64,000 nucleotides of DNA, from NCBI GenBank assembly GCA_041674805.1, contig JBAYVA010000001.1:390612-454611 (forward strand). Reading direction: 5' to 3'. The notes under the pieces are model-generated. The model was not told the origin of the DNA, made no database searches, and saw nothing but the letters and a program-made list of their open reading frames with translations. This document shows, piece after piece, positions 5,252 through 56,510 of this stretch. The position numbers were made by a program, and so were the translations under genes. The number at the start of each line of letters is the position of its first letter. Positions within the stretch are counted from its first letter, which is position 1. This DNA comes from Candidatus Magasanikiibacteriota bacterium. GTDB lineage: Bacteria; Patescibacteriota; Patescibacteriia; Magasanikbacterales; UBA922.

Positions 5252-6544
5252 TTATGTTAAAGATGCTTGATCAAAATCAATCAAATAAACTCGTGGACAA
5301 CGCGTCAAATCAGGTTTACCATTTTCATCTTTATAAAATAATAAAACAAAATTTCCACCATGATAATCATGACCATGTTCTATACCCAATTTTTTTATAC
5401 ATTTTCTTATTTTTTTAATCTTTTCTTCAATTTCTACTCTGAAAATAGTAGCAACACCACCACCAATGAGATCTTCTTCTTCATAATCACCAAAAGAAGG
5501 CCCATCTATTACTCCAGAAAATACGTCAACTATTTTTGATTTACTATTCAAAGTTGAAATTTTTACAATAGGTTCGATAGGTACATAGTCAAAACCTTGT
5601 CTTTCCCAAAAAGTATAAGATTCATAAGCTTTTTTCCAAGCCATAAGTGATTGAACAGGAATTTTTCTAAGTATGACTTTATTTTTCAAAGATTCTTCTT
5701 CCTTACCAAGTACTTTGTCAAAAAGAAAAGTATCAGGACCTGTCTTTTTTTGTTTTGTTCTTACTCGAAAATCTTCTTTATATAAACCAACAGAAGTCCA
5801 TTCTGGATGTTCTCTTATAATTTCTAATTGTTGTTGTTCTGACAAAAATTGAATCATTTTTGAATATTTAAAACGTGCATAAATAATATCACTTAATAAA
5901 CCTTTTCTGATAATATCTGCTAACAATTCCTGTAATTCTAATTGTTGTTGTTCTGAAGTATATTGAATCATACTTGCAAATTCAAAACGTACATATGAAT
6001 CATTAATTAATAAACTTTTTCTGATAACACTTGCTAACAATTCCTGTAATTCTAATTGTTGTTGTTCTGAAGTATATTGAATCATACTTGCAGAATTAAA
6101 ACGTACATATGAATCATTAATTAATAAACCTTTTCTGATAATATCTGCTAACAATTCCTGTAATTCTAATTGTTGTTCATGAGGTAAATTTTTAATCATC
6201 TTTGCAAACTCAAGACATACATATATATTACGATCTGACAAACCTTTTTTAACAATTTCTATTGATAATTTTTGTGATTCTAATTGTTGTTTATGAGGTA
6301 AATTTTGGATCATCTTTGCAGATTCAATACATATAATGCTATTAGAATCTGGTAAACCTGCCTTCACAATACCAATCAATTTTCCTTTATTAAATTTATC
6401 AACACTCTCTCGATACCTATCCACATCTTCCTGAGTAAAATCACTACCAGGCAAACTGTACATAGCACGAATAACAGGATCAACATCCTGTTCTTTTGAT
6501 TCTAAAGTTTCTAATTTTTTATCTAAAATTATTGTTTCAGACAT
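5252..6544 (-). CDS. HEAT/armadillo-like 38-aa tandem-repeat protein with C-terminal RIO/Kdo-type atypical kinase-like domain
   Basis: N-terminal half holds five ~38-aa repeats (…SEQQQLELQELLADIIRKGLL(I/S)...YVRF..ASMIQYT…). C-terminus ...GIEHGHDYHGGNFVLLF...PRVYLIDFDQA resembles the HGD...N catalytic loop and IDF(P/D)QA metal-binding motif of RIO / Kdo (WaaP/KdkA) kinases. Confidence 0.55.
   Translation of the reverse strand: MSETIILDKKLETLESKEQDVDPVIRAMYSLPGSDFTQEDVDRYRESVDKFNKGKLIGIVKAGLPDSNSIICIESAKMIQNLPHKQQLESQKLSIEIVKKGLSDRNIYVCLEFAKMIKNLPHEQQLELQELLADIIRKGLLINDSYVRFNSASMIQYTSEQQQLELQELLASVIRKSLLINDSYVRFEFASMIQYTSEQQQLELQELLADIIRKGLLSDIIYARFKYSKMIQFLSEQQQLEIIREHPEWTSVGLYKEDFRVRTKQKKTGPDTFLFDKVLGKEEESLKNKVILRKIPVQSLMAWKKAYESYTFWERQGFDYVPIEPIVKISTLNSKSKIVDVFSGVIDGPSFGDYEEEDLIGGGVATIFRVEIEEKIKKIRKCIKKLGIEHGHDYHGGNFVLLFYKDENGKPDLTRCPRVYLIDFDQASLT
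5816..6300. repeat. ~114-bp tandem direct repeats (about 5 copies; the two central copies 5931-6044 and 6045-6158 are near-identical) inside the CDS
   Basis: Unit CTGTAATTCTAATTGTTGTTGTTCTGAAGTATATTGAATCATACTTGCA...CTGCTAACAATTC is visible directly in the sequence; it encodes the 38-aa protein repeats. Confidence 0.85.
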
Positions 6545-14776: not shown

Positions 14777-16180
14777 ATGCAAAAACAAAAACATATACAT
14801 TTCATCGGCATCTGCGGAGTAGCAATGAGTGCCCTCGCAATCGCTTTCCACAAACGCGGATATACAGTTACTGGAAGCGATAAAGGCTTCTATCCTCCAG
14901 TTTCAACTTATCTAAAAGATGCAGGTGTACCTTATTATCCAGGTTGGCACGTTGAAAAAATGACGAAAAACGGCGATCCAGATTTGATAATCGTCGGCAA
15001 TGTTGCAGGCTCAAACAATCCCGAATGGATGTACACCCAAGAAAAAAAACTAAACTACAAATCTTATCCAGAAGCTATTGCTGAATTTTTTGTCAAAGAA
15101 AATTCTATTGTCTGCGCGGGAACATTTGGTAAGACTACGACTACTTCCCTACTCGCTTGGATTTTGCAAGAAAATGATTTTGATCCAAGCTATATGTTTG
15201 GTGGTATTAGTCTAAACGATATGCCAGCAGCCAAATTGACTGACTCAAAATATTCTGTGCTTGAAGGTGATGAATACAAAAGTGCTCGTTGGGATGATGG
15301 TGCCAAATTTTTTCACTACTCACCTACTCACCTACTTTTGACTTCTGTAGTTTGGGATCATGCTGATGTCTATCCAACAGAACAATCTTATTTCACAGCT
15401 TTTGAAAAACTACTCAGCAACTTACCAGAATCTGGACTGCTCGTAACTAGCGAAAGAGTAAAAAAAGAAATGTTAGATTTTGCTAAATGCAAAATTATCA
15501 CTTACGGCAAAGATGCAAAAAATGATTATGTTTACCAAAATGTGACAGTAAACAAAACAGAAATAAAATTTGAAATAAAATATCAAGACCAAATTTTCCA
15601 AATCAATTCTCCTTTGCTTGGTGAATATTTGGTTGATAATATGACAGCTACTTTTGCCATGGCACACCAACTTGGTCTAGCACCTGACAAAATTATTCAA
15701 ACTACAAATACTTACAAAAATGTCAAAAGACGCTTGGAAAAAAGACTGGCTCTAGATATTACAGTCTTAGACGACATAGCTCATTCTCCACAAAAAGCTT
15801 CTTCTGTTTTGCAAACTCTAAAAAATATTTATTATGATGGCAAAGTAATAGCCATCTTTGAACCAAACTCAGGCAACAGACAAAAAGAAGCAATACCAGG
15901 CTATGATAACAAATTTTCTGATGCTGATTTAGTCATTATTCCCAAACTGACAGTAATCAAACAAACACCTGAAGAAGAAAAAGCTATTGAAGGAGAAGAA
16001 CTAACTGAAATAATTCGTAAGACACAAAAAAATGTAAAATATATTGATAATGATAATGAACTTGTTGATTATGTTGTCAAAATTGCTAAACCAAATGATG
16101 TGATTGCTTTCTTAGGTAGTCATGGCTTTCGTAATATGATTGAAGCAGTAGTAAAAGGCTTGAAAGGCTTAAAAAGCTAG
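14777..16180 (+). CDS. Mur ligase, MurC/Mpl family (sequence is closest to the Mpl type; by context the UDP-MurNAc--L-Ala ligase)
   Basis: IHFIGICGVAMSALAIAFHKRGYTVTGSDKGFYPPVST..., GTFGKTTTTSLLAWIL, VLEGDEYKSARWDDGAKFFHY.P..L.L..V.WDHADVY. The DEY..A.(F/W)D and YPP.ST motifs are Mpl-like rather than canonical MurC. Confidence 0.75.
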   Translation: MQKQKHIHFIGICGVAMSALAIAFHKRGYTVTGSDKGFYPPVSTYLKDAGVPYYPGWHVEKMTKNGDPDLIIVGNVAGSNNPEWMYTQEKKLNYKSYPEAIAEFFVKENSIVCAGTFGKTTTTSLLAWILQENDFDPSYMFGGISLNDMPAAKLTDSKYSVLEGDEYKSARWDDGAKFFHYSPTHLLLTSVVWDHADVYPTEQSYFTAFEKLLSNLPESGLLVTSERVKKEMLDFAKCKIITYGKDAKNDYVYQNVTVNKTEIKFEIKYQDQIFQINSPLLGEYLVDNMTATFAMAHQLGLAPDKIIQTTNTYKNVKRRLEKRLALDITVLDDIAHSPQKASSVLQTLKNIYYDGKVIAIFEPNSGNRQKEAIPGYDNKFSDADLVIIPKLTVIKQTPEEEKAIEGEELTEIIRKTQKNVKYIDNDNELVDYVVKIAKPNDVIAFLGSHGFRNMIEAVVKGLKGLKS

Positions 16181-16257
16181 AAAAGCCTGAAAGGCACAAT
16201 CAAAAATAATTCAAAAAAGCCTTTTAAGCCTTTCTGGCATTTCAGGCTTTTCCAGCA
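16154..16257. repeat. inverted pair of 9-nt-phased tandem arrays (AAAGGCTTN x5 ... GCCTTTNNN x5) overlapping the Mur-ligase stop codon
   Basis: aaaggcttg/aaaggctta/aaaagctag/aaaagcctg/aaaggc, then loop caatcaaaaataattcaaaa, then agcctttta/agcctttct/ggcatttca/ggcttttcc/agc. Can fold as a long imperfect hairpin. Same family as 20896-20942 and 54957-55027. Confidence 0.7.
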
Positions 16258-16266
16258 TTTGATTAT

Positions 16267-20948: not shown

Positions 20949-21359
20949 ATGATTTTACCTCCAAACTCAATCATTGCCTCTGGCCCTGTCATCATCGAAG
21001 ATGGCAAAGTTTTACTCAACAAAGAAATCAAAGAATCTGGTATTACACCTTGGTTTTTCCCAGGTGGTGAAGTGGAAAGCTTTGATATCAATCTCGAAGA
21101 AGCCTGCAAACGTGAAGCCAAAGAAGAAGTTGGTATTGATGTAGAAATAATAAAACCACTAGACACTTTGCTACACAAAAAATCTGATGGCAGTTTAGTA
21201 ATACTTGTTCATTATTTAGCTAACAGAATTGGTGAAATTAAGAAAGGTGAAAATATTTCCGAAGTTGCCTGGCATGATATAAATAATTTGCCTGATGATT
21301 GTGCTCCTAATGTTAAAATGATAATCTCAAAATATATTGAACGAGGTGTTAGAGAATAA
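20949..21359 (+). CDS. NUDIX hydrolase
   Basis: Nudix box GGEVESFDINLEEACKREAKEEVG. Confidence 0.75.
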   Translation: MILPPNSIIASGPVIIEDGKVLLNKEIKESGITPWFFPGGEVESFDINLEEACKREAKEEVGIDVEIIKPLDTLLHKKSDGSLVILVHYLANRIGEIKKGENISEVAWHDINNLPDDCAPNVKMIISKYIERGVRE

Positions 21360-21388
21360 CACAAATAAACCACAAATAGACACAAATT
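21358..21388. repeat. CACAAAT direct-repeat array (3 units, 10-11-nt phasing), forward orientation
   Basis: aaCACAAATaaacCACAAATagaCACAAATt immediately 5' of the GxxExxY gene; inverted partner at 21785-21815. Confidence 0.65.
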
Positions 21389-21766
21389 ATGGAGGGAGAT
21401 AATAATGTTTATAAAGAACTATCTTATGTTGTAAATGGTATATTCTTTCAAGTTCAAAATGAACTTGGTACTAATTTTCAAGAAAAGCACTACGTAAGAG
21501 CTGTTGCAACTTTGCTTATAAAAAAAGGAATACCTTTTGAATTAGAATATCCTTTCAAAGTAACTTACAATGGTCAATTCTTAGGGAAATTTCAAGCCGA
21601 CATGCTAATAGATAAAAAAATAATTGTTGAATTTAAAACAGTACCATTTTTGAATAATAATCACAGACAACAATTGTTGAGATATGTAAAATCTCTAAAC
21701 GTAAAACTTGGTTTATTAGTAAATTTCAGAGAATACCCTCTTAAAATAATAAGAATCGCAAATTAA
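21389..21766 (+). CDS. GxxExxY-family protein (PD-(D/E)XK nuclease superfamily)
   Basis: 125 aa; YKELSYVVNGIFFQVQNELG..., D..IDKKIIVEFK (putative D...E.K core), ...LLRYVKSLNVKLGLLVNF. Flanked by inverted CACAAAT arrays. Confidence 0.6.
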   Translation: MEGDNNVYKELSYVVNGIFFQVQNELGTNFQEKHYVRAVATLLIKKGIPFELEYPFKVTYNGQFLGKFQADMLIDKKIIVEFKTVPFLNNNHRQQLLRYVKSLNVKLGLLVNFREYPLKIIRIAN

Positions 21767-21784
21767 AATATAAAATTAACTAGA

Positions 21785-21815
21785 AACATTTGTGTATATT
21801 TGTGCACATTTGTAC
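21785..21815. repeat. ATTTGTG array (reverse orientation of the CACAAAT family) between the GxxExxY gene and glyA
   Basis: aacATTTGTGtatATTTGTGcacATTTGTac. Confidence 0.65.
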
Positions 21816-23083: not shown

Positions 23084-23091
23084 TCAAAAAA

Positions 23092-23170
23092 ATATTTGTG
23101 TATATTTGTGAACATTTGTGATATAAAAACGTGAATAACACAAATAAATCACAAATATACACAAATTTTT
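23092..23170. repeat. palindromic pair of CACAAAT-family arrays (ATTTGTG x3 - spacer - CACAAAT x3) between glyA and tsaE
   Basis: atATTTGTGtatATTTGTGaacATTTGTGatat aaaaacgtgaat aaCACAAATaaatCACAAATataCACAAATtttt. Confidence 0.65.
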
Positions 23171-27304: not shown

Positions 27305-27330
27305 TAACTAAGAACTCCGAACCAAGAACT
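27305..27330. repeat. heptamer (NNNGAAC) tandem array, solo copy of the GTTC/GAAC family
   Basis: taagaac/tccgaac/caagaac abutting the pyrG stop; related copies at 30779-30806, 55393-55423, 55798-55831. Confidence 0.55.
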
Positions 27331-28960: not shown

Positions 28961-29104
28961 ATTTTTTATAAATTAAAAATCCTAAATCTAAAATCCTAAA
29001 TCTAATAATATACTAAAAAATATTTTTGATTTATGATTTCGGATTTTTGATTTTTCAATATGCCAAACATTATACCAAATTTTTTCAAATCTGTGTAATC
29101 AGTG

Positions 29105-29586: not shown

Positions 29587-29729
29587 AAGCAAAAACAGAT
29601 AAAAATGAATTTATGTATTTATTATAGGTCAATATTGATTTTTATGCAAGAATGTGGTAGCATTGAAGTGTTAGTTTTAAAAGTTAAAGAAAATTCTCAA
29701 TAAAAACCAAACTTAAACTTTCAAAAAAG

Positions 29730-29840
29730 AGCTTACGAGGCTTACAAGGCTTACGAGGCTCATACAATCTCATTAAAAATGTTCACCTAAGTATAACAGG
29801 CCTTGTAAGCCCTGTAAGCCTTGTGAGCATTGTAAGCCTC
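29730..29840. repeat. long imperfect palindrome built from 9-nt tandem repeats (GCTTACRAG x3 ... CTTGTRAGC x5) upstream of era
   Basis: gcttacgag/gcttacaag/gcttacgag/gctcat ... loop ... ggccttgta/agccctgta/agccttgtg/agcattgta/agcctcg; it ends 5 nt before the era ATG. Confidence 0.7.
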
Positions 29841-29844
29841 GTTT

Positions 29845-30693
29845 ATGAAATCAGGATTCGCAGTTCTCATCGGACGTTCCAACGTTGGAAAATCTACACT
29901 TATGAACACTATGGTCGGTACCAAAATTGCTGCCACTTCTTTTCGTGCTCAAATGACTAGACAAGTTATTCATGGAGTTGTAAATAATGCAGAGGGACAA
30001 ATCGTTTTTATTGATACTCCTGGTATTTTCAAAGATAAAAAAAATAGATTGACTGGTAAACTAATAGAAAAAGCTAAAGAAGCTTTGGGTAATGTAGATG
30101 CTATTATCTACGTAGTAGACCCAACTAGAGAAATTGGCGACGAAGAAAAATATACTTTTGGTTTGATAAGACACTTATCCATTCCAAAAATATTGGTTAT
30201 AAACAAAAGTGATTTGCATAAAGATGAAAAGAAACATTTAGAAAGTTACCAAAATTGGGGTGAAAATTTTGATGCTATTTTTGAACTTTCAGCACTTCGT
30301 GCTAGTCATATTCAACCTTTGATAAAAAAAGTATTAGAAATTTTGCCAGAAGGTGAAGCTTTGTATGACAACGAACAACTTACCAACATAAGTGATAAAT
30401 ACTGGGTAGCTGAAATTATCAGAGAAAAAGTATTTTCTGTTTTTGATAAAGAAGTACCATACTCTATCACAGTAGAAGTAGATGAAATGGAAGACAAACC
30501 AGAAAAATTTGTTATTTCAGCAAGAATCCTAACCGATGCTGACAGATACAAAAAAATGATTATTGGTAAAGGTGGTATCAAAATAAAAGAAATTGGACAA
30601 ATGGCTAGACGTGAACTAGAACAAGCTTTGAACAAAAAAATATTTTTGGAACTAGAAGTAGAAGTAGATACACATTGGGTGGATAGAGTATAA
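29845..30693 (+). CDS. era: GTPase Era
   Basis: G1 GRSNVGKSTL, G3 DTPG, G4 NKSD; C-terminal KH domain (…IIGKGGIKIKEIG…). Confidence 0.9.
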   Translation: MKSGFAVLIGRSNVGKSTLMNTMVGTKIAATSFRAQMTRQVIHGVVNNAEGQIVFIDTPGIFKDKKNRLTGKLIEKAKEALGNVDAIIYVVDPTREIGDEEKYTFGLIRHLSIPKILVINKSDLHKDEKKHLESYQNWGENFDAIFELSALRASHIQPLIKKVLEILPEGEALYDNEQLTNISDKYWVAEIIREKVFSVFDKEVPYSITVEVDEMEDKPEKFVISARILTDADRYKKMIIGKGGIKIKEIGQMARRELEQALNKKIFLELEVEVDTHWVDRV

Positions 30694-30737
30694 AAGTTTG
30701 TAAAGTTATAAAGTTGAAAGTTTATAAAGTAACTTAA

Positions 30738-30778: not shown

Positions 30779-30806
30779 TACTAAGAACTCTGAACACTAA
30801 ACTATT
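30779..30806. repeat. heptamer (NNNGAAC) tandem array, solo copy
   Basis: ctaagaac/tctgaac/actaaac, immediately after the terminator. Confidence 0.5.
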
Positions 30807-41204: not shown

Positions 41205-41328
41205 AATATATATAAATAGACAATTTTTAAATATACAAATTCCAAACAAATTACAATATACAATACAAAATTTTGTAATTTATAATTTGTGTATTATTTG
41301 GAATTTGTATATTTAATATTGTTTATTT

Positions 41329-42177
41329 TTAACTTTTAAATTTATTAATAACATACACTAAAAAAATTCCTACTGGTCTTGCAATTGCAATCCACATCCA
41401 CTTATACCACGCTTCCCATTTCTGAAAATAAATTAGCATACTTCTCGTAAAATTCTTTTGCTTCCAAAGACTTTCTTGCTTTTTGAAACTTTGACCAACA
41501 TAGTCTACAGCCGTAATCACCGGACTATACATGACTTTTAATCCCATTTTTTTCACCTCACGACAAATATCTACATCTTCATACCAAATATAATATCTAG
41601 GGTCAAAGGCAAAGCCTAGTTTCTCTACCACTTCACGACGCATCAGCATAAAAGAACCCCGCACAGAGTCAACCTCTTGTTCTTTACTTCCATCAAAATC
41701 TTTCATCAAATATTTGTCCATCATTTTTGGAAAAACATGTGGTAATTTCAAAATAAGAGCTACTTGTTCCCATACTATTGGCAATCTGCGAGGCTTGGCG
41801 TCTTCATTTAATTTTTCATTTTCATCTACCAATCTTGGACTAACAATTCCCACGTCTTTTCTTTTTTCCAGCCAATCAACAATCACATCCAGACTTCCAT
41901 CTTCTACTTTCATATCAGGGTTCAAGAACAATAAATATTCACCAGTACTAATTTCAACACCTTGATTGTTGGCATGTGAAAAACCAGTATTTTCAGTATT
42001 AGCAATGACTTTTACATTTGGCAATAATTTGACAATTTCAACAGTTTTATCAGCTGAGGCATTGTCCACTATGATTTGTTCAAATTCTAGATTTTTACAA
42101 CCCGAAATCACTGACTTCATTTGTCTTTCTATTTGTTTTTCATTGTTCCAGGTAACTGTGATGATAGATAGTTTCAT
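41329..42177 (-). CDS. glycosyltransferase family 2
   Basis: LSIITVTWNNEKQI..., IIVDNASADKT, LFLNPDMKV. Start at the second ATG, which lies 9 nt after AGGATGA. Confidence 0.65.
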   Translation of the reverse strand: MKLSIITVTWNNEKQIERQMKSVISGCKNLEFEQIIVDNASADKTVEIVKLLPNVKVIANTENTGFSHANNQGVEISTGEYLLFLNPDMKVEDGSLDVIVDWLEKRKDVGIVSPRLVDENEKLNEDAKPRRLPIVWEQVALILKLPHVFPKMMDKYLMKDFDGSKEQEVDSVRGSFMLMRREVVEKLGFAFDPRYYIWYEDVDICREVKKMGLKVMYSPVITAVDYVGQSFKKQESLWKQKNFTRSMLIYFQKWEAWYKWMWIAIARPVGIFLVYVINKFKS

Positions 42178-42787: not shown

Positions 42788-43936
42788 TTATAAACTTAAA
42801 TTATTAACCACTTCCACAATTTGTTTCTTAATTTCCTCAAATTCTTTTTTATCACTCAATCCTAATCTTACTTTAGTATAACCAAAAAACAATTTGTGAA
42901 GTAGTTTAGTTTTTTCTTTTGCAAGTCTTGCTAATTCACCCAAAACATCAATATCACCATATTCAGATAAAATATTTTCTATTGTCTTACTATGATCAAC
43001 GCCATTTTTGTTTGCCATAGCTGAGGCTGATGACATAATGAAATCAAACAAATCACGTGCCTTCTGTTCCAAAAGTGGAACATCTTTTTTATATTGTGTT
43101 TCGGGATCACAAATGTGTACTTGCTTTTCTTTATCAACAATAATATTTGGTAAAATCAATTCACCCCAAGTAACAGGTGGATCAGCTTCGTGCATTCTCT
43201 TTACTTCTCTTGTTATTTTTTTCAAAATATCAAGTAAACCATTTTCATCAATATCTTTAGCATATTCACATTCACCAAAATCTGCAATTTCTTCCCTATT
43301 AGCAAAAAGATCATAAGCATTAACATTTGGTATAAATGGTAAAACCACAACATTTGGTTCAACAATATCCAATACAGGTATTCTACTACGTTCTTCAAAA
43401 ATATCTTTCCAATCTCTTGATTTACATTTTGCCATTCTCGTACCTGTCATTCTTTTCATGAAACTATCTAAACCACGATGAATAAAAGAAGTACTATAAT
43501 TATTTATAACAAAATATTTACTACCATCAGCTAATTCTACTATCTTAGTACGTGTACTAAAATTGGCAACTTTTGAATCGTACTCTGTAGCTGTTTTATT
43601 ACCTCTTATAAGGGCAGGAGCAACAAAACCAACTTCCAACTTGAAAGCAGAAACAACTTCTTCTAATTCCAGTCTCTGTTCTGGAGGTAAAATTATTTTA
43701 CCATTTTTTATAGTATAACCTTGTCTGTTATTTTGATCAGCATTAGCTTTTTCTATTTCATCTTTTGTATTTTTTATTTGTTGTTGTCTTCTTTCAGAAG
43801 CTTCTGGTGTTTCAATTCTATGTTCAACTTCTGGTGCAACAATTTCATCACCAGTAGTTTCTAGTTTTGATCTTTCTGTATCAGGCATTTTAAATTCTTG
43901 ACCTTCTGGTCCTTTCCCTTTTTTTATTTCAGCCAT
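42788..43936 (-). CDS. hypothetical protein with possible protein-kinase-like (PKL) fold
   Basis: Acidic low-complexity N-terminus; ...VTWGELILPNIIVDKEKQVHICDPE loosely resembles the HGD...N / DFx loops of small atypical kinases. Confidence 0.3.
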   Translation of the reverse strand: MAEIKKGKGPEGQEFKMPDTERSKLETTGDEIVAPEVEHRIETPEASERRQQQIKNTKDEIEKANADQNNRQGYTIKNGKIILPPEQRLELEEVVSAFKLEVGFVAPALIRGNKTATEYDSKVANFSTRTKIVELADGSKYFVINNYSTSFIHRGLDSFMKRMTGTRMAKCKSRDWKDIFEERSRIPVLDIVEPNVVVLPFIPNVNAYDLFANREEIADFGECEYAKDIDENGLLDILKKITREVKRMHEADPPVTWGELILPNIIVDKEKQVHICDPETQYKKDVPLLEQKARDLFDFIMSSASAMANKNGVDHSKTIENILSEYGDIDVLGELARLAKEKTKLLHKLFFGYTKVRLGLSDKKEFEEIKKQIVEVVNNLSL

Positions 43937-43945
43937 ATTTTAAAA

Positions 43946-44806
43946 TTATTTACTATTTTTCAAATAATCCCCTAAAGCTTCCTGCCAACTATGCAATTTT
44001 TTAAATTTGTTATTATTCAAGACTGAAAAAGCAGGGCGTTTCGCAGGACGAGGGAAAGCATTAGACATTACTTTATTCAAAATTATTTTTTTATTACTCA
44101 ACTTAAATATTTCACTTGCAAATTCATACCAAGTACAAGCACCATCGTTAATAATATGATAAGTACCAAAGTTCTGTTTACTTTCCAATATTTCTTTTGT
44201 TGAAACAGCTAAATCAAAAGCATAAGTTGGAGCACTTACTTCTTCATCTACAACATCTAGTTTTTTCTTACCCACTTCGTTTACTAGCCAGAGCATAGTA
44301 TCAACAAAACTTTTTTTACTTCCTTCTCCACTACCAGGCAAACCAAAAATTCGTGAAGTACGAATGATAAAATATTTATCACAATTTTTTCGGACATTTT
44401 CTTCTCCAGCTAATTTTGTCTCGCCATATTTACTTATAGGTTCTGCCACAGAATCTTCATCATATCCATTTTTATTTTCACCAGAAAAAATATAATCAGT
44501 TGAGTATTGAACTAAAATAATATTTAATTCTTTCGCAATCTCAGCTAATATTTTTGGAGCTTCAGTATTTATTTTTTGTGCTATTTTATAATCACTCTCT
44601 GATTCTTCTATTTTGTCTACAGCATTATAAGCGGCAGCGTTAATTATTATATCTGGTTGTAAATTTTTTATCACTTCAAAACTTTTGATTCTGTCCGTAA
44701 TGTCCAAATCTTCTTTATCAAAAGCCAAGACTTCATGTTCAGAAGCTAAAACTTTTTGTAAATAATTTCCCAACATTCCTTTGCTACCAGTTATCAGAAT
44801 CTTCAT
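43946..44806 (-). CDS. rmlD: dTDP-4-dehydrorhamnose reductase RmlD
   Basis: MKILITGSKGMLG (Rossmann); YSTDYIF; 286 aa. Confidence 0.8.
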   Translation of the reverse strand: MKILITGSKGMLGNYLQKVLASEHEVLAFDKEDLDITDRIKSFEVIKNLQPDIIINAAAYNAVDKIEESESDYKIAQKINTEAPKILAEIAKELNIILVQYSTDYIFSGENKNGYDEDSVAEPISKYGETKLAGEENVRKNCDKYFIIRTSRIFGLPGSGEGSKKSFVDTMLWLVNEVGKKKLDVVDEEVSAPTYAFDLAVSTKEILESKQNFGTYHIINDGACTWYEFASEIFKLSNKKIILNKVMSNAFPRPAKRPAFSVLNNNKFKKLHSWQEALGDYLKNSK

Positions 44807-44809
44807 AAT

Positions 44810-45226
44810 TTAAGAAGCTAATTTTTCATCTCTAATTTTTAAATATTCATCGTAATCTTCGATATAGTCTTTTCTTTCAGGATTATAATTTGTAGATGAT
44901 AAAGCAAGGAGTACTGCGTCATTAGAAAAATCTTTGAAATGATGCCAAACATAATTGGCAATATACAAAGCAGAAGTAGGTGCTTCCATTTTTATTTCTT
45001 CAATACCTTGACCTCTATCTACCACAGCCGTACAAGTACCAACCACAAGAATAAAAAATTCTTTTTCTTCCATATGACAGTGCGCACCTGTTGGACCTTC
45101 TGGTTTTGTAATATAATAAACTCTTTTTACTTCAAAGTCTACATAATCTTTTAGCTCAATAGGACTCATAGTGAATTTACCAGGTACTACTATTTTTTTG
45201 ATTGCTAATTCACGAAAATGTTCCAT
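44810..45226 (-). CDS. cupin-fold dTDP-sugar 3,4-ketoisomerase-like (FdtA/WxcM C-terminal-domain family)
   Basis: 138 aa; VKRVYYITKPEGPTGAHCHMEEKEFFILVVGTCT; sits between rmlD and rmlB where rmlC would be expected. Confidence 0.5.
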   Translation of the reverse strand: MEHFRELAIKKIVVPGKFTMSPIELKDYVDFEVKRVYYITKPEGPTGAHCHMEEKEFFILVVGTCTAVVDRGQGIEEIKMEAPTSALYIANYVWHHFKDFSNDAVLLALSSTNYNPERKDYIEDYDEYLKIRDEKLAS

Positions 45227-46327: not shown

Positions 46328-46864
46328 TTATTTAATAAAATGATTTCTGACCAATGCCCAAACAGCCATAGTAGGTCCATTAAAAATTTCATTATTCTTT
46401 ATCATTTCTTCTATCTCATCTGGGCGACGATACAAAACATCTATTTCTTCTGAATCATCTAGATTTTGCTCACCTTGCTTAGAAACGTGAGCAATATAAA
46501 CATTACAATAATTTTTTATTTGAGCTGGAGCATAAGCAAAAATTCCAACATTTACCATTTCATCAGCAGTATAACCAGTTTCTTCTTGCAATTCAGCTTT
46601 GGCTGCTTCCAATATTGTCTGGTTACCTTTGGCTTTACCTGCAGGAAATTCAATACTTTGTTTTTCAAATAAATACCTTTGCTGTAAAACAAGTGCAATT
46701 CTACCATCTGATAAAACAGGTACAATCATAACAGAACCTTCTGATTCTAAATAAAAATAATCACCAACTTGTCCATTTGGTTTTTCATAAGTATCATGTT
46801 TATATTTACACCAAGGATTTTCGTGAAGTGTCTCTTCTGATATTTTTTTTAAATGTTTGGGCAT
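46328..46864 (-). CDS. NUDIX hydrolase
   Basis: Nudix box GKAKGNQTILEAAKAELQEETGY. Confidence 0.7.
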   Translation of the reverse strand: MPKHLKKISEETLHENPWCKYKHDTYEKPNGQVGDYFYLESEGSVMIVPVLSDGRIALVLQQRYLFEKQSIEFPAGKAKGNQTILEAAKAELQEETGYTADEMVNVGIFAYAPAQIKNYCNVYIAHVSKQGEQNLDDSEEIDVLYRRPDEIEEMIKNNEIFNGPTMAVWALVRNHFIK

Positions 46865-53562: not shown

Positions 53563-54957
53563 ATGCCAGAAATTACAGACATTGAAAAAATTCCACCACA
53601 AAATATTGAAGCCGAAAAATCACTTTTGGGCTCTATTTTAATTGATAAAGATGCCATGCTAAAAATCTCAGACATAGTAGAAAGTGCTGACTTTTACAAA
53701 AGATCACATGCCTATATCTATGAAATAATGTCCGAATTATATCAAAAAAATGAACCTATCGATGTTTTAACTGTAGCTAATCGCTTAGAAGAAAGACAAA
53801 TTCTAGAAAAATGTGGTGGTAGAAGCTACTTAGTAGAACTATCTAACTCTGTACCAACAGCTTCTCATATCAAACAATATGCTGAAATAATCAAACGTAA
53901 ATCTACTTTACGCCAATTATTGAATTCTGCACATGAAATTTCCAAATTAGGTTATCAAGAAGACGTCGACGATGTAGACCAACTTTTAGACCAAGCCCAA
54001 CAACATCTTTACGGTATAACTCAAAAGCATATGAAACAAACTTTTGTTTCTATTCGTGGTATTTTGAGTACTGCTTTTGAACGTATTGATGAACTACACA
54101 AGGAAAAAGGTAAACTCCGTGGCGTACCAAGTGGTATCACTAAATTAGATGATTTACTTGGTGGTTTCCAAAAATCTGATCTAATAATTTTAGCTGCCCG
54201 TCCATCTGTTGGTAAAACTTCTTTTGCTTTAGACATAGCTCGTCATGCTGCCACAAAACACAAAGTCCCTGTTGGTTTTTTTTCACTTGAAATGAGTAAA
54301 GAACAACTAGTAGATAGAATGCTTTGTGCTGAGGCTGGTATTGACTTGTGGAAGATGAGAACTGGCAATTTGTCAGATAAACCTGATAGCGATGACTTTC
54401 CTCGTATTGGACACGCTATGGGTGTACTTTCCGAAGCACCAATTTATATTGATGATACTCCAGGAAACAATGTTATGCAGATTAGAACAAAAGCTCGTCG
54501 CCTTCAAGCAGAACACGGACTTGGTATGATTGTTATTGACTATATGCAACTTATGGAATCTCACAATGACAAAAATAGCAGTAACCGCGTGCAAGAAGTC
54601 GCTGTTATTAGTAGAAATCTAAAAGGTATTGCCCGTGAATTGAATATTCCTGTAATTGCCCTATCTCAGTTAGCTCGTGCAGTAGAACAAAGCAAACCAG
54701 CTATTCCAAAATTATCTCACTTACGTGAATCTGGTAGTATTGAACAGGATGCTGATATCGTTATGTTTTTGTATCGTAAATCTGTTGATAGAAATTATCG
54801 CCCAGAAGATATTCCACCTGATGAAAAAAATATTGCTGAAATACACATTGCTAAACATAGAAATGGTCCAACTGGTGTAGTTCGTACTTACTTTGATGAA
54901 GCTCGTACTTCTTTCAAAAATCTTGATACCAATACGACTTATGATAGTGGGGAATAA
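53563..54957 (+). CDS. dnaB: replicative DNA helicase DnaB
   Basis: PPQNIEAEKSLLGSIL..., Walker A ARPSVGKTSFAL, Walker B IVIDYMQLM, ...SQLARAVEQ, ...LRESGSIEQDADIVMFLYR. Confidence 0.92.
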   Translation: MPEITDIEKIPPQNIEAEKSLLGSILIDKDAMLKISDIVESADFYKRSHAYIYEIMSELYQKNEPIDVLTVANRLEERQILEKCGGRSYLVELSNSVPTASHIKQYAEIIKRKSTLRQLLNSAHEISKLGYQEDVDDVDQLLDQAQQHLYGITQKHMKQTFVSIRGILSTAFERIDELHKEKGKLRGVPSGITKLDDLLGGFQKSDLIILAARPSVGKTSFALDIARHAATKHKVPVGFFSLEMSKEQLVDRMLCAEAGIDLWKMRTGNLSDKPDSDDFPRIGHAMGVLSEAPIYIDDTPGNNVMQIRTKARRLQAEHGLGMIVIDYMQLMESHNDKNSSNRVQEVAVISRNLKGIARELNIPVIALSQLARAVEQSKPAIPKLSHLRESGSIEQDADIVMFLYRKSVDRNYRPEDIPPDEKNIAEIHIAKHRNGPTGVVRTYFDEARTSFKNLDTNTTYDSGE

Positions 54958-54987: not shown

Positions 54988-55027
54988 GCTTTTTAAGCCT
55001 TTCTGGCATTTTAGGCCTTTCAAGCTT
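54988..55027. repeat. GCCTTTNNN 9-nt-phased tandem array (single arm)
   Basis: agcttttta/agcctttct/ggcatttta/ggcctttca/agctt. Confidence 0.65.
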
Positions 55028-55098
55028 ACTTTAAAAATGTTAAAATATAAAAACAATATAAACTTTATTAATTAAAAAAATATTAAATATAAAACCGT

Positions 55099-55395
55099 AT
55101 GTTCAACAAACTAAAACAATTCAAAGATCTTCGTGATCAAGCCAAAGAAATGCAAAGTAAATTAGCAGAAGAAAAAGTAACAAGTTCTTCCAACGGTGTA
55201 GAACTTACTATGAATGGTAATTTGGAAATCATAAATGTTAATATTTCTCCAGAACTTTTATCTACAGACAAAAAAGCCAAATTAGAAACAGCTTTCAAGG
55301 ATGCTCACGCTGACGCTTTGAAAAAGATGCAAAGAATAATGGCTATGAAAATGAAAGAAATGGGAGGACTTCCAAATATTCCAGGACTCTCATAG
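55099..55395 (+). CDS. ybaB: nucleoid-associated protein YbaB/EbfC
   Basis: 98 aa; MFNKLKQFKDLRDQAKEMQSKL...GNLEIINVNISPELL...AFKDAHADALKKM. Confidence 0.8.
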   Translation: MFNKLKQFKDLRDQAKEMQSKLAEEKVTSSSNGVELTMNGNLEIINVNISPELLSTDKKAKLETAFKDAHADALKKMQRIMAMKMKEMGGLPNIPGLS

Positions 55396-55423
55396 TTCTT
55401 AGTTCGCAGTTCATAGTTCATAG
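55393..55423. repeat. AGTTCNN heptamer tandem array (x4), left inverted flank of the four-helix-bundle gene
   Basis: tagttctt/agttcgc/agttcat/agttcat/ag. Confidence 0.6.
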
Positions 55424-55429
55424 ATTTGT

Positions 55430-55783
55430 ATGCAAACATGCAAGGATTTGAAAGTCTGTCAAAAATCGATAAAATTAGTTACTTCAATTTATAAATTGAC
55501 AGAATCTTTCCCTGACATAGAAAAATTTGGATTGATAAGTCAGATGAGGAGAGCTTCAGTATCAATACCATCAAACATAGCTGAAGGTTTTGCCAGAAGA
55601 AACAAAAAAGAAAATGCTCATTTTATCAGCATTTCTTATGCCTCCGGCACAGAGTTAGATACTCAACTTGTTATAGCAAAAGAGTTAAATTTCATTTCTG
55701 AACAAAATTTAAAAGAAGTTGCATCACAACTCGAAGAAATTTTAAAGATGCTTTATTCTTACCGCGAATACCTATACAAATAA
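55430..55783 (+). CDS. four-helix-bundle protein (23S rRNA intervening-sequence protein family, TIGR02436-like)
   Basis: DLKVCQKSIKLVTSIYKLTESFPDIEKFGLISQMRRASVSIPSNIAEGFARR...FISISYASGTELDTQLVIAKEL. Confidence 0.7.
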   Translation: MQTCKDLKVCQKSIKLVTSIYKLTESFPDIEKFGLISQMRRASVSIPSNIAEGFARRNKKENAHFISISYASGTELDTQLVIAKELNFISEQNLKEVASQLEEILKMLYSYREYLYK

Positions 55784-55797
55784 AATATTTCAAAAAT

Positions 55798-55831
55798 TCT
55801 AAGAACTAAGAACACTGAACTCAGAACTCTG
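55798..55831. repeat. NNGAACT heptamer tandem array, right inverted flank of the four-helix-bundle gene
   Basis: ctaagaact/aagaacact/gaactcagaactctga; its reverse complement is agttctg/agttcag/tgttctt/agttctt/ag. Confidence 0.6.
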
Positions 55832-55833
55832 AT

Positions 55834-56436
55834 ATGTATAGCAAATCAATTCAAAACTTAATAAAAGCTTTTTCTCGCTTACCTAGCGTTGGTCACCGCA
55901 CTGCTGAGCGCTTTGTTTTTTATTTGCTCAAATCTGGCAAAAAAGATGTAGCTGAACTAACTATTGCCCTAAAAGAATTGATTGAAAATATCAAAAGTTG
56001 CGAAATATGTTGGGATTTTACAGATACTAGTCCTTGTCAATCTTGCACAGATCAAAAAAGAAATCACAAAATTATCTGTGTAGTTTCACAACCACAAGAC
56101 AGAGAAACTATTGAAAAAACCAAAGAATTCACAGGTGTTTATCACATTTTACGTGGAACTCTCAAACCTGATGATGAAAATATTTCTAAATTTTTAAAAA
56201 TAAATGAATTGATGAATAGACTTCACAAAAATGAAATAGACGAAATAATCTTAGCTCTAAATCCAGATATCAATGGTGAAACAACGATGATGTATCTAGA
56301 AAGACAAATCAAAAAAATAAAACCAGATATCAAAGTTACTCGTCTCGCTCGCGGTTTACCAATGGGTAGTGATTTGCAATATGCTGATGAAATTACTTTG
56401 GGTAGCGCTTTGAAAAACAGAATCTCTAGCAAATAA
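55834..56436 (+). CDS. recR: recombination protein RecR
   Basis: LIKAFSRLPSVGHRTAERFVFYLL (HhH), C4 zinc finger CEICWDFTDTSPCQSC, Toprim ICVVSQPQDRETIEKT. Confidence 0.9.
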   Translation: MYSKSIQNLIKAFSRLPSVGHRTAERFVFYLLKSGKKDVAELTIALKELIENIKSCEICWDFTDTSPCQSCTDQKRNHKIICVVSQPQDRETIEKTKEFTGVYHILRGTLKPDDENISKFLKINELMNRLHKNEIDEIILALNPDINGETTMMYLERQIKKIKPDIKVTRLARGLPMGSDLQYADEITLGSALKNRISSK

Positions 56437-56483: not shown

Positions 56484-56510
56484 AAAAATCCCGCTTAAAA
56501 CGGGATTTTT
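56484..56510. terminator. bidirectional rho-independent terminator between recR and rplU
   Basis: AAAAATCCCG-cttaaaa-CGGGATTTTT. Confidence 0.8.

Follow-up and report, generated by a model that had tools for sequence, protein, structure and literature searches.

What is a gene for a small four-helix-bundle (4HB) protein doing between ybaB and recR, and why is it bounded by two arrays of tandem heptamers that are inverted relative to each other? We addressed this question in a 64,000-nt stretch of contig JBAYVA010000001.1 (hereafter the window) from a member of Candidatus Magasanikbacteria, a group that is part of the Candidate Phyla Radiation. On the plus strand, the order is dnaB (53563-54957), ybaB, a 117-amino acid (aa) 4HB open reading frame (ORF), recR and a terminator-like hairpin, and the neighbours of the 4HB gene also include rplU and DUF192. 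An earlier note on this DNA had described a 354-bp 4HB gene between ybaB and recR within inverted AGTTC heptamer arrays, and both the sequence and the match to PF05635 bore this description out. Our analysis indicates that the ~440-bp segment at 55393-55832, in which the 4HB gene is the sole ORF, is probably a selfish cassette of the intervening sequence (IVS) type that resides in an operon and whose arms pair in the transcript to loop the insert out. The parts of the locus are as follows.

55099-55395, plus strand: ybaB, the upstream host gene (PF02575, E 4e-16; sequence)
55393-55423, plus strand: 5′ terminal array, four tandem AGTTC-core heptamers (TAGTTCT TAGTTCG CAGTTCA TAGTTCA TAG)
55430-55783, plus strand: 4HB cargo gene, 354 bp, 117 aa (PF05635/TIGR02436)
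About 55798-55832 (arm 55795-55832), plus strand: 3′ terminal array, inverse heptamers (TAAGAAC TAAGAAC ACTGAAC TCAGAAC TCTG)
55834-56436, plus strand: recR, the downstream host gene (RecR_HhH, Toprim_4 and RecR_C domains)
56484-56510, plus strand: terminator-like hairpin, the sole one of the ybaB-4HB-recR unit

The cassette fits tightly between its host genes. The stop codon of ybaB, TAG (55393-55395), is the opening triplet of the 5′ array, the 3′ array ends 2 nt before the ATG of recR (55834), and no terminator was found between ybaB and recR in this unit.

The cargo protein is a clear member of PF05635/TIGR02436, the family of the 23S rRNA IVS protein (S23p), with a score of 131.9 bits against PF05635 (cut-off 33.8) and of 122.2 bits against TIGR02436, ‘four helix bundle protein’ (cut-off 24). 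The AlphaFold monomer model (pLDDT 95.4) has four helices and matched Xcc0516 (PDB 2GSC) with a TM score of 0.95, a root-mean-square deviation of 1.0 Å and 42% identity, while BT_0352 (PDB 2RLD) and Avd, a protein of diversity-generating retroelements (DGRs), were poorer structural matches. Both 2GSC and 2RLD list five chains, and the window protein was modelled as a monomer. The motif RxxxSxxxNxxE, which has been cited for the family (PMC3936711), lies in RASVSIPSNIAEG as R41-S45-N49-E52, and these positions were invariant in our 4HB alignment (A1). Xcc0516 and BT_0352, described as ‘S23 ribosomal protein family’, share both the fold and the motif, but they are structures only, to which no analysis of function or genomic context is attached. 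The ratio of non-synonymous to synonymous substitution rates (dN/dS) of the 4HB gene was 0.08-0.12, similar to that of ybaB, and the protein is under purifying selection.

We next consider the arrays. Three consecutive AGTTCNN units, with at most two mismatches, were matched nine times in the window compared to an expectation of 0.13, and none of 100 shuffled sequences reached nine. Tandem Repeats Finder reported a period of 7 with 4.9 and 4.0 copies in the 5′ and 3′ arrays, respectively. The two arms (55390-55427 and 55795-55832) are reverse-complementary with a score of 22, compared to 6.5 ± 1.3 for shuffled sequences, none of 500 of which reached it. In the minimum-energy structure from RNAfold as well as in the centroid, the two arrays pair as a long-range stem that encloses the ORF. 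The AGTTC core of the 5′ array is kept in the orthologous loci L002-L010, L013 and L015, and the 30-nt core of the 3′ array recurs unchanged in L013, while dS is at least 0.7 in the neighbouring genes and the short spacers beside the array have diverged. The array cores are thus more conserved than neutral sites and, like the protein, under purifying selection. Two solo arrays of the same type, which the earlier note had placed next to terminators, were confirmed; each lies on the minus strand and runs from a TAG stop codon.

27305-27330, minus strand: solo AGTTC-type array, begins at the TAG stop of pyrG and is followed by a terminator hairpin
30779-30806, minus strand: solo AGTTC-type array, begins at the TAG stop of a DUF2202 gene and is followed by a terminator hairpin

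Alignment against shuffled sequences found no complementary partner for the array at 27305-27330. An AAAGTT-type array at 30693-30735 was considered as a partner of 30779-30806 and rejected, as the complementarity was not significant.

To what extent is the cassette a fixed part of the ybaB/recR junction? We compared the recR loci of 80 related species, with a recognisable ybaB in 79. The ybaB stop lies no more than 12 nt from the recR start in 31 of the 79 Magasanikbacteria species, and empty sites typically read TAA, 1-4 nt and ATG. The statement that ybaB and recR are almost always adjacent is thus only partly true, as the rest of the 79 species carry insertions. A 4HB gene 78-84% identical to that of the window, with AGTTC arrays, is present in L013, L015 and L002-L010, and more divergent 4HB genes (58-64%) lie between mixed AGCCAAT/AGTTCAT heptamers in L016, L017, L019 and L177. 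In L020, L078 and L083, AGTTC/AGCCAAT heptamers stand at the junction as an inverted pair with a loop of 20-45 nt and no gene. The species with the most similar RecR among those without the cassette (L011, L012 and L014, 90-92% identical to RecR of the window) have quite different hairpin elements at the site. The polymorphism that the earlier note had anticipated was therefore found: the closest relatives are without the cassette, some sites are empty and some hold arrays only.

One recent change could be resolved. Between L015 and L016, YbaB is 100% and RecR 98% identical, while the 4HB proteins are only 63% identical, and dS is 1.29 in the cassette compared to 0.15-0.18 in the flanks. The identity breaks ~20 nt inside the ends of ybaB and recR and the cassettes differ throughout, which looks as if homologous recombination had replaced one allele of the whole unit by another. 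Transposition was rejected as the cause of this difference, since breakpoints ~20 nt inside the host genes fit homologous replacement. Taken together, these comparisons show that the cassette behaves as an optional heritable unit, which is present, absent, replaced or array-only among related species.

The same lineage also occurs elsewhere. 4HB proteins 57-63% identical to that of the window are encoded at the folA/tmk junction in L171, L186 and L189, between AGTTC(/AGCCAAT) heptamers, and a 60%-identical copy lies at yebC/ruvC in L191, where the unit is the near variant AGTRCGC. Since 4HB genes of this lineage are accompanied by the same or a near-variant core at both junctions, gene and arrays travel as one. 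A look at other 4HB genes and their flanks, suggested in the earlier note, thus returned copies of the lineage at new junctions, and it also returned arrays at most unrelated 4HB genes (described below). All of the AGTTC-lineage junctions found (ybaB/recR, folA/tmk and yebC/ruvC) flank genes of DNA metabolism, which may be due to chance or to a target preference.

Filled sites read TAGTTC...GAACTA, and the outer TA...TA may belong to the repeat itself or stem from duplication of TA, which look alike because TA is palindromic. A target-site duplication had been proposed as a sign of insertion, and comparison of filled and empty sites found no unambiguous one. No transposase turned up among the ORFs examined in the 64-kb window, and the 4HB cassette had no match in 50,697 phage records. 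The view of the locus as a mobile cassette is thus supported by the polymorphism and by the copies at other junctions, but not by a clear target duplication or a transposase, and arrays also exist without the gene.

The design is not restricted to Magasanikbacteria. Metagenome contigs were scanned with an alignment of diverse 4HB proteins, which yielded 80 loci 43-55% identical to the query. The detection of arms depends on the threshold: the upstream 120 nt were complementary to the downstream 120 nt with z > 5 relative to shuffled sequences in about 50 of 74 loci, and a fixed score cut-off gave arms in 56 of 76, with a median of 29.5 nt and 82% identity. A periodic stretch, for which 16 or more matches out of 21 were required at a single lag, was found in 43/74 upstream and 30/72 downstream flanks, compared to 2/200 control regions. 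The period was 7 in 36 of the 43 periodic upstream flanks and 23 of the 30 downstream flanks, and mostly 8 in the remainder. The unit differs at nearly every locus (GGCGTGA, GTGATAA, CAAGTGG, GTTACGA, AGGCACAA and others) and tracks the protein, as the mean number of shared hexamers is 16 for pairs of proteins with 70% identity or more and about 0.5 for pairs below 50%. The neighbouring ORFs are co-directional in about three quarters of the cases, and the gaps to them have medians of 47 and 36 nt. The median distance from the upstream ORF to the 5′ arm is 2.5 nt, and that from the 3′ arm to the next start codon is 4 nt, so that across the family the base of the stem would bring the upstream stop beside the downstream start.

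More distant copies have the same arrangement. The 4HB gene of Nostoc punctiforme is flanked by CAGGAGT (×7) and CTCCTGA, and other cyanobacterial plasmid copies share the array design. Inverted tandem arrays stand on both sides of the 4HB genes between cas6 and cas4 in Anabaena sp. 90 (L181) and between cas10 and cmr3 in Picosynechococcus (L182). The Nostoc edaphicum copy, which lies antisense within an nrd operon, and the Riemerella copy have the inverted-array design too. In Azospirillum lipoferum (L184), the gene lies inside the 23S rRNA (Rfam LSU, 482 bits), between arms that show periodicity at lag 7 (0.73 and 0.67). By comparison with the E. coli sequence, this insertion appears to be in the helix-45 region. 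Taken together, these results show, at the level of sequence, a design common to most 4HB genes examined and to real 23S IVSs.

The first 50 kb of the Nostoc punctiforme plasmid pNPUN01 (L192, 1-50000) hold the same three forms as the window, namely 4HB flanks, gene-less pairs and solo copies. Heptamer arrays flank the 4HB gene at 1559-1611 and 1965-1996, and their unit recurs as a solo array at 964-997; gene-less inverted heptamer pairs are found at 44801-44883 and 46627-46818, and a further solo array at 43828-43859. These arrays may link the cassettes to the classical heptamer repeats of cyanobacteria. As a separate observation, three metagenomic cassettes with three different units (L101, L109 and L132) are immediately followed by a gene whose product starts with MAKNISFTIKFW or MKLTLKIWRQK. 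By eye, this gene looks like that of a succinate dehydrogenase/fumarate reductase iron-sulfur subunit (sdhB-like), and the junction upstream of it may be another recurrent cassette site.

Since the 1990s, IVSs that carry an S23p ORF have been known, but only as a curiosity of 23S rRNA with unclear origin and function. In the IVS of Coxiella burnetii, the S23p ORF lies in the loop of a 28-bp terminal stem, tandem heptamers (GACAGAT) vary in copy number between strains, and RNase III cuts in the stem so that the IVS is excised (PMC4990558). A looped S23p/4HB ORF is common to the window cassette and to the 23S IVSs of Leptospira, Coxiella burnetii, Xanthomonas and Brucella (in helix 45, 25 or 9), as are terminal inverted repeats with a stem of ~28-30 bp and, in Coxiella and Azospirillum, an arm that contains tandem heptamers; a selfish or possibly mobile nature is ascribed to both. 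Unlike these, the window cassette lies outside rRNA, in an operon between protein genes whose stop and start abut the arms, and its ORF is under purifying selection, whereas the Coxiella ORF was reported to be decaying and probably untranslated. In addition, excision by RNase III was shown for the Coxiella IVS, whereas for the window cassette it is a prediction. The shared ORF, stem and tandem heptamers thus argue that the window cassette is the same kind of element as the ORF-bearing 23S IVSs, apparently lodged in an mRNA.

A mechanism can be proposed on this basis. In the ybaB-4HB-recR transcript, the two arrays would pair into an imperfect stem of ~30 bp, which would loop the cassette out and place the upstream stop beside the downstream start. 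The stem would in this way preserve the stop-start coupling seen in empty sites, so that the insertion would be tolerated. RNase III probably cleaves this stem, by analogy to the rRNA IVSs.

Several observations weigh against a selfish cassette whose arms serve for pairing in the transcript. The stem predicted by RNAfold for the window is broken by a mismatch about every 5-6 bp, and no signature motif of RNase III (rnc) was found in the window, although its 64 kb are too small a fraction of a genome for this to be informative. The sole recent change resolved, between L015 and L016, was a homologous replacement, and no transposition event was caught. The metagenomic sample consists of the loci most similar to the query, and the generalisation covers that part of PF05635 and a few distant examples from plasmids and rRNA. 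Selection on the stem as RNA only was rejected: arm mismatches compatible with G·U pairing numbered 70 on the sense strand and 66 on the antisense strand, and transitions were not enriched. Moreover, the arms are polar when read from outside in, with AG 282 times compared to CT 59 times (58 loci vs 6) and TAG 216 times compared to 35 times inside-out, while TAA is depleted (81 vs 139). Together with the free 2-nt spacers between conserved 5-nt cores, this outside-in bias points to sequence recognition beyond complementarity.

The bias itself was analysed further. Outside-in arms also hold 622 G compared to 244 C (66 to 68 loci with arms), and nearly all of their units include AG, in many cases as TAG. 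All three frames are closed by stops in 50/136 arms outside-in and in 30/136 inside-out. A role of the heptamers in providing stops in all three frames was rejected, since the excess is specific to TAG and TAA is depleted, which indicates a sequence motif and not a generic stop function. The AG/TAG-biased, G-rich and C-poor composition of the outside-in units was accounted for by none of the explanations tested.

The lack of a G·U excess and the outside-in polarity suggest that pairing is not the whole story. The conserved (T)AG followed by 4-5 lineage-specific bases, repeated ~4-5 times, looks like a recognition array, and a pentameric, Avd-like 4HB protein may be the reader of (T/U)AG-N4 repeats. 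The explanation that survives best beside the selfish cassette is one in which the arrays are primarily binding sites for a pentameric 4HB protein, each subunit taking one (T/U)AG-N4 unit as in TRAP, and the stem is secondary; the ligand would be RNA, for autoregulation or protection, or DNA ends, in a synaptic complex for movement. The number of units per arm (about four to five), the alternation of a conserved core with variable spacers, the strong AG/TAG bias and the co-variation of unit and protein lineage all fit this explanation, as do the five chains of 2GSC and 2RLD and the presence of Avd in the solved DGR ribonucleoprotein. In contrast, RxxxSxxxNxxE is nearly invariant while the units differ widely, and arrays persist as gene-less pairs or solo copies with no gene linked to them. 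As the primary role of the arrays, we regard binding as a serious but rather unlikely alternative; the idea is compatible with a selfish, looped-out cassette and does not exclude it.

The arrays could also be a general intergenic repeat of the genome, such as simple-sequence hairpins or accessories of terminators, so that the 4HB gene is merely inside one of them and there is no cassette. The gene-less hairpins of the window (16154-16260, 23090-23170, 28970-29053, 29719-29850 and 41211-41331), its two solo AGTTC arrays and the gene-less AGTTC/AGCCAAT pairs at ybaB/recR in L020, L078 and L083 are in line with this. It is made improbable by the co-occurrence of gene and arrays with the same core at three junctions, by the complementary period-7 flanks at most 4HB genes of unrelated taxa (compared to 2/200 controls) and by the correlation of unit sequence with protein similarity.

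Alternatively, the 4HB protein could be a functional partner of YbaB/RecR in nucleoid organisation or recombination, and the arrays could be regulatory sites of the operon that act by attenuation or translational control. The gene is kept at the junction in several species under purifying selection, and the other junctions of the lineage, folA/tmk and yebC/ruvC, also belong to DNA metabolism. But the closest relatives lack the 4HB gene and the two genes abut in 31/79 species; in addition, the family is found in cas operons, antisense in an nrd operon, upstream of sdhB-like genes and inside 23S rRNA, which makes such a partnership very improbable.

Finally, we rejected as scarcely credible that the cassette is a remnant or accessory of a DGR with the 4HB protein acting as Avd, since the weak matches to bAvd (PF22296, 30.7 bits) and DGR Avd (NF033474, 33 bits) are under the curated cut-offs of 40 and 80, and since Avd (PDB 4DWL), a component of the solved DGR reverse transcriptase-RNA particle (PDB 8UBE), has the same fold (TM about 0.8) but only 8-9% identity, with no reverse transcriptase among the neighbouring genes and no template or variable repeats at the locus.

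The selfish cassette was also compared with other known repeats. Short tandemly repeated repetitive (STRR) sequences are tandem heptamers of cyanobacteria. The GGGAATC heptamers of Xanthomonas include 70-75 convergent pairs that can form stem-loops (PMC4692102), and in Beggiatoaceae, TAACTGA forms intergenic tandem heptamers (PMC4679880). All of these resemble the arms in being intergenic tandem heptamers that often adjoin gene ends. The heptamer papers on Xanthomonas, Nostoc and Beggiatoaceae make no link to 4HB genes, and these repeats may be kin to the cassettes. Miniature transposable elements with inverted repeats (MITEs) and hairpins of the repetitive extragenic palindrome/bacterial interspersed mosaic element (REP/BIME) type are likewise short and intergenic with terminal inverted repeats, and gene-less derivatives at the same site recall them; the cassette arms differ in being tandem 7-nt arrays instead of unique sequence, and neither a cognate transposase nor a clear target duplication was found. 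23S_rRNA_IVP genes inside cas loci have been treated as possibly cas-associated (PMC3936711; PMC10910872). In the literature searched, there was no account of arrays flanking 4HB genes besides the Coxiella IVS heptamers, and no description of family-wide inverted tandem-heptamer ends or of residence at operon junctions. What was known already is thus the protein family with its fold, as well as the rRNA IVS; the family-wide array ends and the operon residence appear to be new.

Other small elements share the ybaB/recR junction. In another Magasanikbacterium (L075, 1979-2501), it holds a 97-aa ORF, GIY-YIG nuclease-like by eye, bounded by the inverted repeats TAATYCTGAG...CGAAGRATCCCG, and gene-less versions of this TAATYCTGAG repeat fill the junction in L029, L034 and L051. 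In L014 and L033 the site holds G-rich hairpins (CTCCCCCTATTAGGGGGAG...), and the ybaB stop of L047 is followed by a G-rich repeat related to them (TCCTCCCCTATCAGGGGAGG...). The window element at 41211-41331 (ACAAATTCCAAA...) belongs to the family that occupies the junction in L011 and L012, which indicates that such hairpins change place between species. The junction is a hot spot at which small elements of several kinds are found.

The window itself holds further elements of similar build. A second single-gene cassette at 21357-21813 consists of a PDDEXK_3 (GxxExxY) gene (21389-21766; PF13366, E 5e-30) between inverted 10-mer arrays, so the analogy to a GxxExxY cassette drawn in the earlier note was apt. 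On one side, three copies of ACACAAATAN begin at the stop codon with which the upstream NUDIX gene ends; on the other, 21786-21813 holds the inverse 10-mers. The gene-less hairpin at 23090-23170 has the same unit as this cassette. Further gene-less intergenic hairpins at 16154-16260, 28970-29053, 29719-29850 and 41211-41331 have arms of tandem units with periods of 9, 7, 9 and 7, respectively, each with its own unit. Past the dnaB terminator hairpin, a half-array at 54990-55030 (AGCTTTTTAAGCCTTTCTGGCATTTTAGGCCTTTCAAGC) resembles the right arm of the 9-mer hairpin (16219-16260) and appears to be a solo arm of another family. In addition, a 114-bp tandem repeat (5822-6370; 3-4.5 copies, 83-88% matches) lies inside a minus-strand ORF of 430 aa (5252-6544).

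A wider claim can be made tentatively, and we hold it to be possible but doubtful: PF05635 genes may mark very widespread, tiny mobile cassettes with inverted (T)AG-N4/5 ends, of which the 23S IVSs would be the rRNA subset. Most would sit at stop/start junctions of operons, including cas operons, and would decay to gene-less and solo arrays that explain part of the cyanobacterial STRR, Xanthomonas and other heptamers, with the repeats recognised by the pentamer.

The locus and its relatives show an element of the IVS type that apparently lives in protein-coding operons, and they provide a rule for its recognition, namely inverted tandem heptamers that run from the upstream stop to the downstream start, independent of the sequence of the unit. 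A stem that loops the insert out of the transcript would provide a rationale for its tolerance. The same arrays at the 4HB genes in cas operons (L181 and L182) suggest that the published cas association reflects cassette insertion, and that ‘23S_rRNA_IVP’ genes in cas loci hitch-hike as cassettes instead of being Cas components. The cassettes may also help to trace where the tandem heptamers of cyanobacteria and other bacteria come from, and (T/U)AG-N4 repeats are a candidate ligand for the uncharacterised 4HB/Avd-like family.

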